Of a DNA stretch of 64,000 nt, positions 21,323 through 33,965 are shown one piece after another. This DNA comes from Batkoa obscura (taxonomy: Eukaryota). A model generated the notes under the pieces. It ran no database searches, was not told the DNA's origin, and saw only the letters and a program-made list of their open reading frames with translations. Made by a program: the position numbers and the translations under genes. Position 1 is the first letter of the stretch; the number at the start of each line of letters is the position of its first letter. Where the stretch lies: assembly GCA_030770535.1 (NCBI GenBank), contig JASVEC010000025.1, positions 186,001 through 250,000 of the forward strand, written 5' to 3'.

Positions 21323-24300
21323 TTAACTAAGCATATCTTCTCTATCAACCACGTTATTATTCATATTACTTCCATCTTCCAATTGTGAAAAGTTCAAGTA
21401 ATGGGCAGGTCTATGACGTTCGTCATAAAATGGTAAAGGTACTTCTAAACTAAGATGGTATTCCTTATCAGGCTGATGAGAAGCACCTTGGAAATTATAA
21501 TTCCAAATTGAATCAACAGGTGAAAGGAAAAATCCGAAAAACTTGTCTGAAAGTAACATTTGAATACGTTCATAATGGGTTGGTAAGTATCCTGCTGGGT
21601 TAGTACCACTTAAATCTTTGTTGGATGCTCCCCACTCATTACCTGATGGTGTTACTTTGTAACAAGTGAGTGAACAAGAACCTGGTGTAAATGCACAGGT
21701 AATAATTACTGCGGTATCGATATCCCAACCTGGATAAGAACCAAGTAATTTAGCATGTGTAGTAACGTCTTGTGGCGAAAGATGGGGTAACTCATTTGGT
21801 AGAGTATGAATCCAACCTAAAGGTTCAAGGTCATTCAACTGTTCATGTTCTGGTGGATTATTTGGAAGATGCACCATTTGATGGGTGCCCCATTGAGGTA
21901 CCATAACAATGGAACGGATCTCTTTAACTTGTGGATTATCTTTCGGCGAAACACCATACAAAAACCCTGAAATTTGAGTTCGAAGATCAGAAATTATAAT
22001 AAAACGCTTGAGTAAATTTTTAGGCAACACATAAGTATACCCTGAATCCTTTAGATCATCACTAGCAACAAAGATGTGTTGGGTTCTTAATTGGAGATTG
22101 GTGGATGAAATAGCTCTTACTCTCCAATCTGTTTTAGAAGAAAAGGTTTGAGTTTCATACCCAGTTGTGGTGGTAGTAATAATTTCATCTCCATGAATAT
22201 TGTGGGTTTTAGTGGTTACTGCCGTCAGTTGACTTTGCTCTTTAGCTTGTTTTTCGATTTCAGCGATTTGTTGACGTTGAAGCGAAGGGGCTGAAATTTC
22301 CATACCAAGGATAATATCACGGATTTCAGGTTGAGTCAAAGAAGCAACGTTAACATTATTCTTTTTACCATAATCTGCAAGGATAAGATCCTTTAATGCA
22401 ACTTCCACCTTAATCCATTCATCATCTGGTAAAGTAGGCCAGATATGATGTGGTTCAGTGATTGTATTCTTATCGGGACGAAGGATCATTTTAGTCTTAT
22501 CGTTATTCACATGAAGTGCTCTTAAAATCAAAATCAAGCGGAAGAAAGCAGTATATGAAGAAATTGTCTTTAGGAAATCATCATAAAGATTAAACAGGCA
22601 CATCATTGGCTCATTCGCTTTAAGAATAAGATCGCCAAACTTCTCTACTTTGAGACAAGCTTGGAAAGGTAATTGTAACTCAGAACCTTTGATCACAATA
22701 TTAGGGAAATCTAAAAGATGGACCTCAAGTGGGTCTAACATACCCTTACGAGTAACAATGATCTGTCTTGGTTGTTCTTCCACTGGAAGTGAACGAATAA
22801 GAGCAGCTACTTCTTCAGCAGTCTTCCACTTGGCTAACTGACCAAGACGTTTTTGTCCAGCCCATACCGAAGTGTGAATAATCTTAAGGAAGAGTTGACC
22901 AGTACGTGGATTGAAGATAAAGATAGCACCATTGATAGGTTTTGTGGTTAAATTACCTTCAAATGTCTTGTGGATGGTAACACGATAAACATTAGTATCA
23001 TCCACAAACCAAATGATTTGGTTTGAGAACAATTCACCGTAATTTGTTGAGTTAAGGTATGGTTCGGTTGGTTCAGATGAATACAATTGCACACCTTTAC
23101 GAATACGTTCACGGAGCACATAGAGAGCAGGATTAGCTTTAATAATCTTACCCATGGCTTGTTGTGTAAGTGGCTTAAGACCAGGGAACCAATTACCATA
23201 AGCAGAATAAAGATTGTAAGCAAGATCAACACCAATCATCATACCAGTAGGTGAAGGATAGATACTCATATTATCTGTAGTATAATCTAAGAACTTAGCA
23301 CGAGTGTAACGTTCAACATCATGAGAGTCAAAGTCACCCCAACGCAACTGAATATCAATCCAGAATTTTTGAATGGTACCATTATCCATTGAATCCTTAT
23401 TATCATTCAAAAGGGAAGGTCTGGATACACCCCATTTATAACTAGCAAACAAGAGGATATCCGCACATGAACTGTTCATTTTATAACTTTTACGTGGATG
23501 GATCGTTTCTTTTTGTACTGACTCAATTTGCAAGGCTTCGGATTCTTGATCAAACACTTGTACCATATCCATCACTAATGCTTCATGAATTTTTTGCCAT
23601 AAATGTGCACGGAAAATTTGGATCAAGGAAATTTTAAGTGTTGGGATTTTACCATGCATAAAGATACCTGTTAAATCAAGTTGTACTTGGAAACCAACGT
23701 ATACATTTGAGTTATGGACAACGGCATTATTACCAAGTAAAAAGAGTTTGTCGGAATTCTCGTCTAAAGTTATACCACAATATTGGCCTGGACTTCCAGC
23801 CGTTTTAATAACATTAAATTTATATCCAACTGGTAAATATTGAACAACGACTGGGGCCTCTCTGCGTTTGCGATCAATTGACGAGAGACTGAGTACTTTG
23901 GTTAAAGCACTGCAAGGCACAAACGTTACACAGGACTCGAAGCCATTGTCAATTTCACGATTTGACACAGAATATTTGATACCAAGGGAGCGAGCTAGAG
24001 CCAAGGCACCAGTAACAATATTTTGGTGTGCTGAAGTAAATACTACTTTTTGGTATTTTTCTTTGGCTTCTTTGAAATCGTTGTATCGAGTCAACTCCAT
24101 CTTATTTTCAAGCTCTTTATCTTCTGGATTTGCATCAACAACTTCACCATTTGAATCAATTAAACCAGCCAAGAGATTCTCACGGACAGATATAGATTCA
24201 GTAAAAAACCATGTTGGTACAACCTTGGGTTGAGCTCTTTCCATGTTGAGTTGGCACATTAAATTCCATATTTTATTCGTTTTAATTCCTTTGTTAACAT

Positions 24301-27300
24301 TTACTTCTTCAGATACTAATTCTTCAACATTTGATGCTTCAACTCCGATATTATGATATATTACTCTAACACGTTTCATTTGGCTTATATGGTCCTTGTT
24401 ATCAGCATTCTTTTTTGCTGCTCTATCGCCGGTAATCCACAAACCAACAAGCCAGGCAGCATTGTTTACTTCGCTAGCAGGCAAACCTTCTTTTCTACAC
24501 ATTTCTTCAAATTTATTATTTCCGACCAATACTGGTGCTACAAGTTGGTAAGTTAATTGACGGATATTTTCATCCACAAATGAGTATAATTGTGTCTCAA
24601 GTTCCCAAGTAATGGTTGATTTACTCGAGTTGATTAAATTGTCTCTAAATCCTTTTGCAGCTTCAAATGCGTTTGCTTCAGAGTTCTCATAATCTGATAC
24701 ATGAAACGATTTTTTGGTCCAAGTAACCATCTGAATTTCCTCACTGTTAAATTCTTCTGTTCTAAGTGAAGTATAGTTAATATAGAAGGATTCACCAGTT
24801 TGTTCATCTTTAGTTACTTCACCAACAGTCATATGGGTAGTTAAATGTAATAAATGTCTAGAATTACTGGTATACTTAATAAGATCTAATCCCTCTTGAT
24901 TACTTGACTTTTCTTGGCCATGATGTACTTCGCAAACCTCATACATGGTATCTTCGCCTGAGTGAACCCCAGTTACCTTTCTTGGCTTTGAATCCATACC
25001 TAGCACACTGTCTCCAATTTTAATGTCTTTAATAGCACGAATAGAGCCATCAGCCATGTATACAGGAGTAGAAGGAGCAAAACATCTATTAATCGTAGGT
25101 GACCACCAAAGGGTGAAGCGACGATTGGGAATTTGATTCAAACCAGATCTCTGTGCATTTGTAAGCTTCTTGTATTTCATACTTTCTTCGAATCCAGAGT
25201 TATGCACTACCATACTATCTGATCTTAAGAATCTTTGGTTACCGTCAACTAAGAAACCATAGTATTCTTGAGGTTCAGTCATTTTAATTGAAACAATTGG
25301 AACAAAGAATTCTTTGATGGCTACTGCATTGGTATCTGAATTGATACTGTTTTTAAGATTCTCATCAATATATAAAGCTGGATCAGCTTCAACCTTTTTA
25401 AAGTCTGTCTCATTAATATAAACAAACTTTTCGCTTTGATTAACAGCAACTTTATAAAGAGACCAAATAGGTTGAACATGTTGAGGCAACGAAAGTAAAT
25501 CCCTTACAGTTGCTTCAATCTGGTAAGTTTTAACTGTAGCAGAAGTTGTTTCTAAATGTTTCAAGAAATTGGCACCTGCATCACCTGCTTCTTTTTTAGT
25601 TTGAAGTTCTTTTTCTCCAACCTTGAAGCTCATAGAGCAGTATCCACTATTGTACCAATAGACAGTATAAGAAGATGAATCTTCGCTCCAGGACATAACC
25701 GCCTTATTTGAAGAGACTAAACATAAAATATGGTTACCAGTAACAGTTAAAGCTTCACCAACATGAGGTAAAATCTCATACAATGGTGCAACACCTTGAA
25801 CAACTTCCTTAATATTACGCGGTAATTGATCATCGCCCATTAGTTTATCATTCACACTAACATCTTTAGCTAATTTTATAGATCCATCTTGGAGCATAAG
25901 TGGGGTAGCACCAGAGAAACAAGCTTTTTCCCAAAACAGACCTTCCCAAGTAGGGAAGTAAGTACCTTTAAACAATGTGTGTTCTAAAATACCTTCAACA
26001 CCGCCCAAGGCTTGAATCATATCGGTACGATAATTATTTAAGTTCCAAAGTTTACCATCGTGGCGTTGATGGGTCCACCAGAATGGATTATTTTTAAGTA
26101 TCTGATACTGTTTGAAATCAGTACGAACACGCCATCCTTTATCATAGGCAAGAGTATGTCGATCCTTTTGGAATAAGGTATTGATTCTAGGGATACCTCG
26201 ATCCCAACTATCTTCCAAATCTTCAAGAGTAAGTCGACGATTTTGTGCTGTAGCTTCTTGACGTTTCAAAGCATATTCTGCCCATACACGTTGCGAATCA
26301 ATAAACTCAGATTCCCAAGGTTGGAGATAACGGAATAAATTAGGAATCAAGGTATCTTCATCATGGGACATACCAGATCTAAAATGAGTGATACCAGTTT
26401 CAGTTTGACGTGACCATCTAAGGTCGGATTGTGGGATAAGTACATGGCCCATAGACAACATCCCCAAACCACCCAATTCCTTTGGACAATTGTGACCAAT
26501 TAAAAAGTCACCATGGCAGAATAATTGTGATTGTCCTTTTTCTACTTGAAAACCGTAATAGTCATCAACTGCTTCAGCTTGGCTGGAGATGTCAAAGATA
26601 TGACAATTGACTTTTGAAGTGGTCGACTTCATATTTGCAAATTTAACAAATTTACAAGACAACGCATCCAAATCGCCATTTAAATATACTTTTCCTACAT
26701 ACTCGGTAGAATCCTTGCCTTTGGTCTTTGTAGCAATAGTAGATAAACCAAGGGATCGACCCAATTCATAGACTAATTTTAATATGGGCTCATTTAAATC
26801 AAGGTTTTTAATGAAAACATACCCATCATCTTGAACTTGACCACTTGAATCAATTAAACCTGCAAGTAAAGCACGACGAACATAGCCAGGCTCTTGGACA
26901 AAACGTTCAATTTCACTGTAATCATTAATTGTACTGTGGTCTATACACATCTTCGTTAATAAAGCCTTAAATATTTCGACATCGATGTTCTTATTGGTTG
27001 AAATGGTTGATTTTGTAAATCTAGGGCTACCAAGGTGTGCTCCGATTGCCCAAGCATAATCTTCAGCAGAATCCTTATTAAGCTTGTTTTTAAAGCTATG
27101 GCAAGAATGTAATAAACTTGGTATGCTTCTATTTTTGCTTCCAATCGGCCATTCTTCGATTGAAGTACTATATCTCATCATACATGGTAAAACTTTGATT
27201 CCTGCTTTTATCATTTGTGATCTATATTTATTGTATTCATTTACGCTTACAATCCATTCATTAGAATCTGACAAACCTTCAACGGCATTCATAATCACTT

Positions 27301-30300
27301 CATCAATATTATTTTCATGCTTCATATATGTTGCATAATCAAATTCTACCAACTTTTCGATTTCAAATGGACGGGCCAATTTAAGCATGGAATCAAACTT
27401 AAGTTTCCAATAATATACTTTATAAACTACGTTGGATTGGTTAGCCTTAACTTCCTCAATATCATAAAAGCATTGTACAACTCTTGAAACCTTTGGAATC
27501 TGTAAAACTAACAAATGGTTTTCATTACATAAAAATCCAGGCTCAAACAATAGCTCTTCATTATAAGCACAATTTAAAGCCTTTGAAAGTTTAACTCTAT
27601 ATAATGGTGCAGTGCCTGAAACTAAATGTTCTACTCTACGAATTTTACCATCATCACCAAGCACTTGATTTCCAACTTTGATTTCTTCAATTAACTTTGT
27701 GGTACCATTAGCTAAACGTATAGGCATCCCCTTACCATAACAATAGAATACAACAGGTGGGAAACGGCTAGGCATTTTAGAGTTAAGACCGATTTTTACA
27801 CGGGTTTGAATCTTTGATTCGCTCTTAACCAAAAGATCTAAGATTTCACGAGTATGTACCACTGCTTCACGATAATAAGTCATTAATCCAATCAAAGCTG
27901 TATTCCATTTGTTGACAATCTTTGAAAAGGTGGTGGATCCAGAGGACATTAATATTTGACGGATACGATTATTGAAACGTTGGATAGACTCATCATCCAC
28001 CCTTAAAAAGGCTTGTGCAGTACGTTCTTTAGTTTGTTCATTAATTAAATTCCATACACCATCTTTAAGTGAAAATGTTTCTTCCTTTGCACGAATCTTT
28101 GGTAAAATTCGAACTTCAAATCCACACATGGAGAATAGAAGATTAGGATTATCTCTTGAGTAAACACTCACAAATGTTTCTTCCCAATCAAGGGTTGTAA
28201 CTGATCTTGGTAAACGATTTTTCATATCCCAAAAAGTAGCACGGCCTAAATTGACATCATGCTTCATCAAACGCATTCTACAATCACGTGGCCAGCACTT
28301 TTTATTATTGTAACCAACGATGTTTTCATTATTAGGATCCGGGTGCTCTGTTAAATATCGTTGAATCAAATCTCTTGATTCATCAGCACTGAATCTGAAA
28401 AGTATATAAATACGATCTATATAACGAGAATAAAGCCTTATTGGATGTTTGGTTTCAGTAGGAACATCTCTAAATTGCAAAAAATCATTTGGTAGTTGAG
28501 GTGGTCCAGCCATTTCAGATGCTCTTTGTAAACCAAGAAGCAATAAATCCAAGACTAAGCCCCAGAATTGATAAATAAACGAAGCAAATTGTAAACCACG
28601 AATTAAACCATAAGAATTTAAATGATTCATATCCTTATAATTAAGGACAACATTATTCTTTGCTGACATATAATCGGCTAAATTATGATCTAAGATTAAA
28701 CGTAAAAGTCTATTCAAAACTGTAATATCCACTTTCTCATATACTTTGTTGAGCTTTGTTTCTACCATTACATTACATTCACCTTCAGATGTTTCCCAAA
28801 TATCAGTAAGATTGTTAATTCCTTGACACCATTTGTAAGTAAGTAATGGAGGAGGTTCATTATCTGATGGTTTGATCCATGCTGGGAAGAGATGACGCTT
28901 ATCAGCTTCATACCAAAGATATTGATCAAGGTAGGCATCAGTAATCTTTTCCATTGGTTCCACGTCATAAACTGGAATAAGATGAGAATATAAATCCATG
29001 AACTCAATTCCTACTTCTTTAAATGCCCTTTGGGTCAAAAGTAAACGTTTAATTCTAGAAAGAGCTTCATGAGGATTATCATAAGCTTGTTCAATTAAAC
29101 CGAGTTCTTCACGTTGAGATTGATTCAAACGTCCTTTTACAGAGTATGCTTCTCTTAAACGTTCAAGAGCAAGGATCAACAACTTGGTATCATGTTTATA
29201 TGAAAGTGGTGGGAAAGGAATTGGAGTGAATTTTCTTGATTCAAGCCAGTGCACTGTTGAAGTGAAGATTGCAACAGCTTCCTCAGGAGAAACATAAGGA
29301 CCATCTTTAAGATAATTATGTTGTCTTTCTTGCTCAGCCTTGAGCCACAGTCTGGTTAAACGTCCTAAATTCTTTTTACATACTGTTTTATCAACTGTTG
29401 CTCCTCTACGGATACGTTCACGATTATAATGGGCTACACTGGTCCACCAATCAGCTTTAGATTTGACATAACGGAGGATCATATTTTCTATAGGTGTAGG
29501 CAAACCTGGTACTTTCCATGGAATATTGGCTTTCCAACAATTGTGGGCAACAATGAAATTTCCAAGTAAAAAGAGGGGGTCTCTACCGTCTAACTCGAAA
29601 CCAAAGTATTCACCCTTATTTGAAACTTCAGTGATATCAAATTGGTTATTGTTGTTGTCTTCTATAGCTACACCTTCTCCTTTCAATTTGTTTACAAAAG
29701 GAAGGGTTGAAAATTCCCTACCAAAAATATTAATCTGTTCTTCTCCATTTGATACAAATAAACCAAGAGATCTTGCAACTTGTACTACTAATTGTTTTAA
29801 AATAGGACTGACTTCATTGACTTTAATCTTAAACTTTAAATCAAGTTGATCGATACTAGATGGCAATGATTCTAATATACCGGCTAACATATTCGAACGG
29901 AATAGCTTTGATTGATTCATAACACATGAAGCTAATAAATCAGGAGAAGCAAACTCTCTCAATTTGTTTATACAATCCCATGCCATACTTCTAACACTTG
30001 TACTACTATTGGATTCTTCTATTCTAGTAGACGAAGCAAATTGCTGACCAATAGCATAAGCTACTGAGTTAATTGGTGCTGGAGTTTGATCTAATTCATC
30101 AGATGCTTTGAAATGTAAATTATGAATAGCTTGTTCTAAATCTAATTCTGAGGAATACGGGAATTCGTTGACAGGTTGACGAATCATAGTGAAAGTAAAA
30201 GAGGAGTGAAGAAGAGTTTTGGAAAACTTAACATAATTAACTGAAGAAACTTCCCATCCAGTATTCAGAATGGTTGAATGGTCTTTTTGGAGAGCTTTAA

Positions 30301-32926
30301 TTGCGCTTGGCTTGTCTTCAAACCTATATATTATAACTGGATGATTTTGTTTTAACTTAACGCTAGAACTGTCACCCCACGTGTATACTGATCCAACAAC
30401 AGATGGTGCCTCAAACCCAAGTTCCTCGTTATATTTGATTTGAGGATGATAAAAGGCAGCATATTTCTTGTTAGAATCTTTAGGCATAATTATATTACCT
30501 GAAGTAGAGCAATTAAGGACTAAAGTATGTTCATCATTACATGTAAATAATTCTTCCTGAGTCTCTTTATCACTGAACTTATATAAAGTTGAATGGCCAT
30601 ACATTGTATCCTTCACTCTTTTTGGTTTCTGATCTTTACCCAAAACTCTATCTCCAATTTCAATGTTTTCTACACATTTTAAGTTACCATCAGCCATCAT
30701 AACTTTAGTTCCACGAGCAAAACAACGCCATGCTTCACTGAGATGCTGTAAAATGGTTTTAGATTTATTAGCAGAAATACCTTCAGGCATCATATCTGTA
30801 ATATCATGCATTACTGCAGCACGGAGTTCAAGATCATAGTGGGATTCCACTCTCTGCTTAGTGACCGTTTTAGCAATACCTTTAGAATGACGACCTTCAA
30901 ATTGACGAGCAAGTAAATTACCAAGCCAGCGTTCAAGAAGTGGGACAATACCACGTAAGAAAAATAACCATACTCTCCATCCTGGAGCCCAGAAACCACA
31001 ACCAGGACCTTTACCAACTGGCCCAGTATTAAATCTATAGTAGATCAAATGTTTTAAATCCTTGGTGAGACGGACTTGTCTCATTAATTTATATTTGTAA
31101 CGATACATACCAGTAAGTTGACCAACATGGGCAAAGATATATTGAAGACCATCAGCCAATTGGAAAGCGTCAACATTGCCCAAACGATACTGTACATGTG
31201 AATCAACCACAAGCTTAGTAAGCCTTAAAATTTCACGACAAAGATGAAAAGCATTTCCGAAACGAGATTTCTTACGCTCTTTAGTTGTTAAAGTTTTAAT
31301 AGGCTTTAAATTGAAATTATAATCAAGATGGAGATAATTCAAATTTTTACGATGGATTAATAAATTTAACATATTGTAACCTTGACGACACACTTGTAAC
31401 CCTGCTTCTACCCAATCAAGATCGGTGATTTGGAAAAACTTGGTTGCTTTCAATTGACGGAATAAGTATTTTTTGTTTAATGCTTTAGGTTTACGATGCT
31501 TCAAGACATTCAAAACATAACATTTCAGTAACTTTTGGTAAGAAACACGGACTTTTACGGGTTGATCTGGTGGACAATGCTCTAAGTACCAATTTTTGAC
31601 AAGTGGGATATCTTGAGCACGTCTAGTATTACCTGAACGCTTATCGAAAGGGTGAGGGGCCCAGTAAAGAGCGATAGCATTTGAAGTATTATCAGTGTAA
31701 AGTGGAGCATCTTCAAAGAAAGGAGTTACATTTTCTGATAAAGAGAATTCGAGATCTTCATCTTCGTCACCAAATATACTTTGTTCATGTAATCCAGAGA
31801 TGCTTTTATCTTCGAAATCACGTGTAGAAATTGGGTTAATAATAGGATCAAAATAAAATGTAGGTAATTGAGGGTCATCATTACGAATGTAAACAACAGT
31901 TGGATAATGATACCATGAAACATGAACTGCTCTTGGTAAGGAATTATATAAGAATGGGAAAGCAATCTTATACTCAGTACGAATTTGTTGACGAATGATA
32001 ATCTTATTAATATCATTAAACTCATTCCAATCTTCATCAGCTGGGTCTAAATCTCTATATAAAGGCTCAAACTTGGGACCACCTGGAATAGCTAAATTGA
32101 GTGATTTAGCAGTTATAAAAGAATTGACATCAAAAAGATAAAAGTAATTTTTATCATTGAGATCAGATAAAAGTTGATGTGCTAAACGGTACAACGCTGA
32201 CATGATTGGAAGATCAAGACTCCATTTACGGTAAGTATCACCATTGATGAATTTTGTGCCAAGGAGTGGTTTATGGTCATAAAACCATTCATAAACTGCG
32301 CTATCTTCTTCCGGATCTAATTCCATTTGAATAGGCTCAAGAGGATCGACATCTAATATATTGTCACCATAATCTAGTGGAGGTTCTTCATCATCAAAAG
32401 GAGGGAAACGCATACGTTTAAAATGACGACGATCTCTCTTTTCTCTACGCATCATAATCCACATGGTACCCCATTGAGCAAGGTAGATTGGCTCAACCAC
32501 ACGAGGTACCTCATTAACGAAAGTGATAGCACCAGTGATATGATACAAAACTGGGACTTCCCTTTCTTGTTCCCAGGGCATAGGCATGTTTTCTAACAAC
32601 TTTAAAACGGCATGAGGGATATATTTAAGGGCACCCAAATAGATACGCTTATCATGGCGAAATTTTTTCGAAGACATATCACCATGGTCTTTAATGATTT
32701 TTCTAACGTGCTCCGGCGGCATCTTTTGCTTTTCTTGTTCAGCGAACCCGAATTTTCTTTTGTCGCCATAACGTTTTGAGTTCATTTGTTGCCATCTCTT
32801 GGCCTTTTCTTTGATTTTTTCAAGAAATCTAGCATTTTGAGTATCTAAAAGGTTATCCTCAGAAGCAGCAACTTGATAAGGATAATAATTTGAATTATTA
32901 GGAGTAGAATCTCCTTGTTCAGTCAT
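21323..32926 (-). CDS. PRP8: Pre-mRNA splicing factor Prp8 precursor with four inteins (3867 aa precursor, ~2355 aa mature)
   Basis: Highly conserved Prp8 sequence ([12 protein letters not shown]/linker, RNaseH-like, Jab1/MPN), interrupted by four Hint-domain insertions. First ATG at 32926; the ORF track starts at an upstream TTG. Confidence 0.98.
23711..25084 (-). mobile_element. PRP8 intein 4 (458 aa, VMA1/PI-SceI-like; [10 protein letters not shown]...VVHN|SNVY)
   Basis: Cys1, [16 protein letters not shown] and [23 protein letters not shown]...[11 protein letters not shown], +1 Ser. Confidence 0.95.
25199..25921 (-). mobile_element. PRP8 intein 3 (241 aa mini-intein at the canonical fungal site; FWEKA|CFSG...[10 protein letters not shown])
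   Basis: Cys1, block B VTGNHIL, terminal HN, +1 Ser. No LAGLIDADG motif. Confidence 0.96.
26489..27742 (-). mobile_element. PRP8 intein 2 (418 aa; [10 protein letters not shown]...LIGHN|CPKE), LAGLIDADG remnant
   Basis: Cys1, [18 protein letters not shown], terminal HN, +1 Cys. Removal restores PPVVFYCPKELGG. Confidence 0.95.
29540..30724 (-). mobile_element. PRP8 intein 1 (395 aa; [10 protein letters not shown]...IVAHN|CWKA), degenerate LAGLIDADG
   Basis: Cys1, block B TCNDEH, terminal HN, +1 Cys. Removal restores [15 protein letters not shown]. Confidence 0.95.
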
Positions 32927-33965
32927 CTTTAAATTGAACAAATCGGAGATTGATAAAAAAAGTGAGTTGAATTTCTTAGATTATTTAAAATATAACTTTT
33001 AAATAAAAAGTTAGTTCAATTCAATCCAAGTTAAAGTTGGTTTAAACATCCACGAAATCTGAAATACTTATGAGACAAATCCTAATTTCCAGCTACTTGA
33101 TTGGATGCTGATTGCATATTCCAATCCAAAAAGAACAAAATTCTACTGTACAGATAAAAAGTTTAGAGTAACAAATGCTCTCTACATTTTGCAGTTTTGA
33201 GCAAAAAGTGTACTTGCTTTTGACTAATCAATTTCTATTTTGCAATTAGCATTAGGACCAAATATTCTTTCAAAAGTAGCAACTCAAACTGCGGGCGTTG
33301 TTTTTTGGTTGAAATAATGAAATAATGAAATAATTGAATTAGAAGTTCAACTTAATAACAATAAATATTATATTCTTAATAAATTAAACAATAATCATTA
33401 TTTTAAAGTTATAACCCTTGATTTAATGCTTGTTTGTCTTTTTATGTAATATTTAATAGGTTATTTTTTTACATTATAATGTGTTACTAGATAAACCAAA
33501 TTGAGTTATTAATTGAGACTAATACATAACATAAAATAACTGATCAATCACAATATTAAGAAATTTTGAACACAAACTTAGTTTATTTAATAAACTTAAA
33601 AATTACCAATCTAGCTACAATCTGAATTCTTCATTTAAAAATAAGTAATCACTAAGACATTATTTACAATAACACCGTCATCTTAATGCTACAATCATAT
33701 GTGATTAATAGTAAATAACGATGTTAGTTTTATTCTTTAGTAATTTAAAAACTTTTAATTCAAGCAAGTAATTTTTATATTAAAATTTTTATTAGAGGAA
33801 ACATAAAAAATCAAAAACTTGAGCAGGTCAATTGAATTCTAAATTCAATTTCAATAACATAATAATACTTTAAACTTCATAAGGAAGCTAAGAGCAAAGA
33901 GCTGTTCATCATAGAATCATTGCCTGGTTAATTGCCTTTGTGCCAACAGCTTAATAATTCTTGCT

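Follow-up and report, generated by a model that had tools for sequence, protein, structure and literature searches.

A Prp8 intein at the TINR/S site of Batkoa obscura, probably unpublished, and its link to serine at the +1 position

The stretch of DNA analysed here, referred to as the window, comprises 64,000 nucleotides of the Batkoa obscura genome (GenBank assembly GCA_030770535.1, contig JASVEC010000025.1, positions 186,001 to 250,000), and all positions below are counted from its first letter. A single minus-strand open reading frame at 21323-32980 (3885 amino acids from stop to stop) encodes Prp8 together with four inteins. The prp8 gene (21323..32926, minus strand) is an uninterrupted frame from its first Met, made up of an extein of ~2350 amino acids and the four inserts. 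Intein 4 (23711..25084, minus strand; 458 amino acids, encoded by 458 codons) is VMA1/PI-SceI-like and lies at a site that we write as TINR/S, the slash marking the point of insertion. It is flanked by the -1 Arg codon AGA (25085..25087, minus strand) and the +1 Ser codon TCA (23708..23710, minus strand), which adjoins the insert and is a single base away from an Ala codon. A first-pass annotation of the sequence had placed the intein at 23708-25087, a span that does contain it but also takes in these two extein codons. The junction it read, TINR-[intein]-S, is real, with a Cys…His-Asn intein followed by the TCA codon, and it was right that human Prp8 has Ala here (TINRANVY, Ala1545). The equivalent yeast position is 1617 by offset, which we take to be Ala as well.

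Intein 4 has the features of a class 1 intein: it is inserted in frame, starts with Cys-Phe (Cys1), carries an N-x-x-H block B in which the conserved His is kept (24836..24877, minus strand), ends in His-Asn and is followed by Ser at +1. Standard class 1 splicing requires a hydroxyl or a thiol at +1. From the motifs, and given that Prp8 is essential, intein 4 is predicted to splice itself out with the host Ser as +1 nucleophile. Between the splicing blocks is a central LAGLIDADG-type domain. Matches to Pfam (Hom_end_hint, E=3e-48; Hom_end, E=5e-14) and to PI-SceI, the best match in the structural database (E=6e-41), are too strong for chance similarity. The acidic residues in blocks C and E that mark an active LAGLIDADG endonuclease are missing: block C (24425..24460, minus strand) is degenerate, with a G-D-G motif lacking the acidic residue, and block E (24146..24184, minus strand) has Asn at the acidic position in the window allele, with Asp in its place in contigs from three of four public sequencing runs. 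No empty allele at TINR was present in the contigs of these four runs, which come from close isolates. Among 40 listed of 331 isolate differences, amino-acid changes make up 11 of 26 in the intein (23711-24391) and none of 14 in the extein, as expected under relaxed selection on the intein core.

TINR/S lies 38 residues past Prp8 intein site a and 49 ahead of site d, and it matches none of the eight published sites checked (by flanks for a-f and AKWK/T, by described position for g), so far as the portions of the sources covered describe them. Flanks of catalogued sites are a (WEKA/S), b (EAWR/C), c (EVH/C), e (PVVFY/T) and f (KFLDY). Sites a-g are listed by Green 2019, in the part of the paper covered, with g assigned to the N-terminal end of the protein (PMC6805012); this placement, known from a text description, does not fit residue 1545. 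Site d is given 87 residues past a in the covered text of Monier 2013 (PMC3749507), and counting 87 residues from site a leads to VMDL/C. The part of the Green 2018 supplement covered (PMC5784728) names site c as CLDFP and includes Capsaspora e and f inteins, which map to PVVFY/T and KFLDY; in those of its rows that were examined (some of 76 occurrences), TINR lies within the extein and is followed by Ala, as in Allomyces, which reads TINRANV. Site AKWK/T is added by the Anaeramoeba paper, in its covered part (PMC10710043), and both Anaeramoeba Prp8 proteins among our homologues are empty at TINR. Literature searches, judged from their listings and with InBase, subscription papers and some figures and supplements outside their scope, showed no publication on a TINR/S intein, and prp8 is not mentioned in the covered portions of Reynolds 2023 (PMC9866270) or PMC8778642. 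The proposal of the first-pass annotation that this may be a new insertion site thus holds within the literature covered, and we regard the site as very probably unpublished. Inteins at the published sites share with intein 4 the host protein, Cys1, the block B His, the terminal Asn and a Ser, Cys or Thr at +1, going by the covered parts of their descriptions (PMC3749507, PMC5784728, PMC6805012, PMC10710043). They differ in position, and their similarity to intein 4 is weak (E=3e-4 for Prp8-a structures).

Homologues were taken as the best 120 of 2796 matches to the region (7985 scored), a set that favours intein-bearing proteins. An allelic intein occupies TINR in 23 of them, from Coemansia/Kickxella, Sorochytrium and Neoconidiobolus. 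Its C-terminal junction is visible in 21 (two are truncated), and all 21 have Ser at +1, while the 97 empty homologues have Ala in 92 cases and Ser in five. A nucleophile where the site is occupied and mostly a non-nucleophile where it is empty is therefore the pattern at TINR. Since the extein tree puts the occupied proteins at three separate points (the window, Sorochytrium and Kickxellaceae), they represent about three independent events rather than 22. The Batkoa host branches beside Entomophthora, and the window is placed among Entomophthora and Conidiobolus, both of which are empty with Ala, as is Massospora; the nearest named Prp8 is that of Neoconidiobolus thromboides (P0053, 96% in the best local alignment). 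Kickxellaceae adjoin empty Ala taxa comprising four Coemansia, Mycoemilia, Spiromyces, Smittium and Dimargaritales, and in all three occupied lineages the nearest empty relatives have Ala. The first-pass annotation had proposed such a survey and named as one outcome that would count against it a Ser common in intein-free relatives; Ser proved instead to accompany the intein and to occur elsewhere at the rate ordinary for a conserved Ala column. At +2, Asp replaces Asn in one occupied Coemansia clade (P0009, P0010, P0013, P0015-P0018, P0020), and also in two empty metagenome loci (L010, L012).

The 23 allelic inteins share 28-41% identity with that of the window and outrank inteins from other Prp8 sites, and allelic inteins account for 22 of the 23 top BLAST scores. 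A quick tree with three outgroups unites them in a single clade (SH-aLRT, the Shimodaira-Hasegawa-like approximate likelihood ratio test, 100), and the splicing motifs are kept in all 23. Identity of the window's intein to that of Sorochytrium (39%) is nearly equal to its identity to that of Kickxella (40%), which points to horizontal spread, as judged from these sequences. Within Kickxellaceae, the intein tree parallels the host tree; because of this concordance, and because base composition, in guanine-cytosine content overall (GC) and at third codon positions (GC3), matches that of the exteins, the element is old there. The nearest non-allelic relatives are inteins of VMA1, RBR-ligase and Nar1-like proteins, with Cys at +1 where the junction is visible, and free-standing endonucleases of Mucoromycota. 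These inteins, including that of Saccharomyces VMA1 (PI-SceI), have a common domain order and block B Asn variant with the TINR inteins and form sister groups to them in the intein tree, but sit in other host genes with other flanks and have Cys at +1. Unlike the TINR inteins, PI-SceI and the RBR and Nar1-like inteins retain acidic endonuclease motifs. P0240, P0246 and P0247 (Radiomyces, Mortierella), apparently free-standing endonucleases, branch beside the TINR inteins. Related inteins with intact-looking endonuclease motifs occur in the eukaryotic proteins P0478/P0243 and P0241, whose motifs suggest a Nar1-type Fe-S protein and an RBR ligase as hosts. A viral donor was sought in two scans of viral contigs, of which one gave no relative and the other a single distant helicase intein.

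We favour, with a probability of roughly 60%, an origin in which the intein was first inserted into a natural Ser allele and then spread by homing with co-conversion of the adjacent codon. A VMA1/PI-SceI-type intein would have entered a rare allele that already had Ser at this column, a starting point suggested by the likely donor group, which has Cys at +1 and unlike flanks. Its endonuclease, active at that time, would then have carried it by homing into Ala alleles in other early-diverging fungi, where a splice-competent Prp8 would have resulted only if repair copied the neighbouring base as well (GCN to TCN). Vertical inheritance and decay of the endonuclease would have followed, leaving the host locked on Ser. 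The Ser is thus likely to travel with the intein as part of the mobile unit. Co-conversion is preferred because the three occupied lineages lie amid Ala relatives, the alternative being that the intein met a host class of 1-2% on three occasions.

That alternative, raised beside co-conversion in the first-pass annotation, is possible but on balance doubtful. Here each host would first have mutated from Ala to Ser, a change of one base that is tolerated, and only hosts of this kind could have received the intein, so that co-conversion would be unnecessary. Several observations weigh in its favour and against co-conversion. In a sample of 120 proteins picked on the C-terminal region, and so not chosen on this column, Ala was found in 111, Ser in two, an occupied site in two and a missing motif in five, giving Ser in 2 of 113 empty proteins (1.8%); the mean Ser share over 45 conserved Ala columns is 1.5%. 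A search with a Ser-bearing 40-mer, and thus biased towards Ser, gave 3127 matches; Ser stands at this column in 16 of the 120 listed, so that its share is at least 0.5%. The 17 metagenome loci that carry a Ser/Thr-type codon here (eight AGT, six TCN, three ACC) are all empty, no occupied allele being found among them. Empty Ser is scattered over eukaryotes, in Umbelopsis isabellina, Actinomortierella, Benjaminiella, Caulochytrium, Gregarina, a pedinophyte, Chilomastix, Anaeramoeba flamelloides and ciliate-like records. Ala to Ser at this column is an ordinary, tolerated substitution; the residue is therefore not invariant, and each host could already have carried Ser when it was invaded. The first-pass annotation had put the change in one of the most invariant parts of Prp8, which is correct for the near-invariant flanks and incorrect for the Ala itself, and the change it described, while tied to the intein, is less surprising than it implied. 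Further points on the same side are that a conversion tract is not shown by a second marker, the DNA compared being the window allele; that the empty relatives are distant (~0.07 substitutions per site on each side between the window and Entomophthora) and sparsely sampled; that the independent occupied lineages known number three; that support for the allelic clade falls to 0.75 once further outgroups are added (FastTree); and that the block C acidic residue is absent from all 23 allelic inteins, a family that, on its motifs, is likely no longer mobile. Co-conversion events were also few in the haloarchaeal MCM-d system, according to the portion of that study covered (PMC10643990). For the first insertion, prior mutation of the host almost certainly applies, the nearest non-allelic inteins being followed by Cys. 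For the later ones it fits less well, in that no empty Ser protein adjoins any of the three occupied lineages and the rare host class must be met three times.

A single ancient gain followed by many precise losses, with the empty Ser of fungi as scars of the lost intein and a return to Ala in most of the remaining lineages, appears improbable. The concordance of intein and host trees in Kickxellaceae, the extein-like GC and GC3 of the intein and the existence of free-standing endonuclease relatives in Mucoromycota would all suit it, as would the distribution of empty Ser, found in 4 of 32 proteins with at least two other inteins and in 1 of 63 with one. However, this enrichment is confounded, since the multi-intein Ser proteins come from long-branch protists or unnamed records, empty Ser occurs at the background rate, and each of the many losses would have to be followed by reversion of Ser to Ala. 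The Ala Coemansia clade may have lost the intein or may never have been invaded; an approximately unbiased (AU) test on 19 rows did not separate its sister and nested placements (p=0.36). Least credible, and very unlikely indeed, is that the insert is an RNA intron or an assembly artefact, as implied by the gene model of P0053, in which the greater part of each of the four inserts is missing and brief remnants are retained. With that model, 19 foreign residues remain within an invariant region, whereas the insert is an open frame of 458 codons with intact splicing motifs, is crossed without a joint by contigs of four public runs (two of them guessed to be RNA), two spanning it in one piece, and is annotated in frame in other occupied homologues.

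Co-conversion of the +1 residue has a published parallel in the haloarchaeal MCM-d intein (PMC10643990). In the portion of that paper covered, Pro at +1 blocks splicing and not recognition in vivo, the Pro is co-converted to Ser, and Turgeman-Grott et al. 2023 conclude that co-conversion of the +1 codon is obligatory. As at TINR, occupied MCM-d sites always have Ser at +1 and empty ones mostly a non-nucleophile (PMC10643990, same portion). The MCM-d case differs in concerning an archaeal helicase, with Pro rather than Ala and an active endonuclease tested in vivo (PMC10643990, same portion); at TINR the host is a eukaryotic spliceosome protein, the change is conservative and the endonucleases are decayed in all sampled copies. 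The TINR/S site and its tight link to Ser are thus real, the site is probably unpublished, and the mechanism favoured for it is one already known. It would extend to eukaryotes the MCM-d pattern of an intein that depends on a host residue and probably brings that residue with it. A usable intein site is stated to need Cys or Ser at +1 in the covered part of PMC1635734; the assumption that inteins use only positions that are already Cys, Ser or Thr would then be too narrow.

Prp8 gains an intein site just downstream of the alpha-finger and 114 bp from site a. The 38-codon extein (114 bp) that separates inteins 3 and 4 (25085..25198, minus strand; human residues 1507-1544, yeast 1579-1616) contains the alpha-finger/1585-loop region, as located in the covered parts of PMC12707134 and PMC6805012; the alpha-finger helps to select 3' splice sites (PMC12707134, covered part). 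Intein 3 (25199..25921, minus strand; 241 amino acids, catalogued site a, WEKA/S) has no endonuclease domain detected in a Pfam search, and with merely 114 bp between it and intein 4, interference between neighbours or co-homing is possible. Intein 2 (26489..27742, minus strand; 418 amino acids) occupies catalogued site e, PVVFY/C, and intein 1 (29540..30724, minus strand; 395 amino acids) catalogued site b, EAWR/C. By BLAST and in the intein tree, none of these three is closely related to intein 4. A Val in place of Cys at site d was considered as a defence peculiar to this genome and rejected, as Entomophthora has it too.

Other Prp8 sites repeat the pattern in counts that ignore kinship among the proteins. 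At WYEA the +1 residue is Ser in six of six occupied proteins and Asp in 108 of 109 empty ones; at INTLF it is Ser or Cys in 12 of 12 and Gln in 87 of 90; at WTx (WT[HN]) it is Ser in two of two and Gln in 83 of 96; and at DEE it is Ser in the one occupied case and Pro in 78 of 78 empty ones. KWNT is likewise Ser or Cys when occupied and mostly not when empty. Catalogued site c resembles TINR in this respect, with Cys when occupied and Leu frequent in empty Prp8 (88 Leu, 30 Cys). About 20 distinct Prp8 intein sites, eight of them catalogued, occur among 121 proteins, and Mycoemilia and Dimargaris Prp8 (P0023, P0025-P0030, P0002) contain at least nine parsed inteins each; the published maximum in the covered part of PMC10710043 is five per Prp8. 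Tentatively, zoopagomycete Prp8 may be saturated with inteins that repeatedly open sites by rewriting conserved residues to Ser or Cys. If this were true, selfish elements would drive the sequence of the spliceosome core in a particular direction, and the stray Ser found in empty genes would be the scars that they left. Published Prp8 catalogues (7-8 sites, up to five inteins per protein) undercount, in part through gene models with false introns; the public Neoconidiobolus thromboides model P0053 omits all four inteins as if they were introns, so that protein searches miss them. The Ser of the empty metagenome loci is encoded by AGT in eight cases (L002, L006, L010-L013, L016, L017), a codon choice suggesting that Ser was fixed long ago in a group that is AT-rich and probably ciliate-like.

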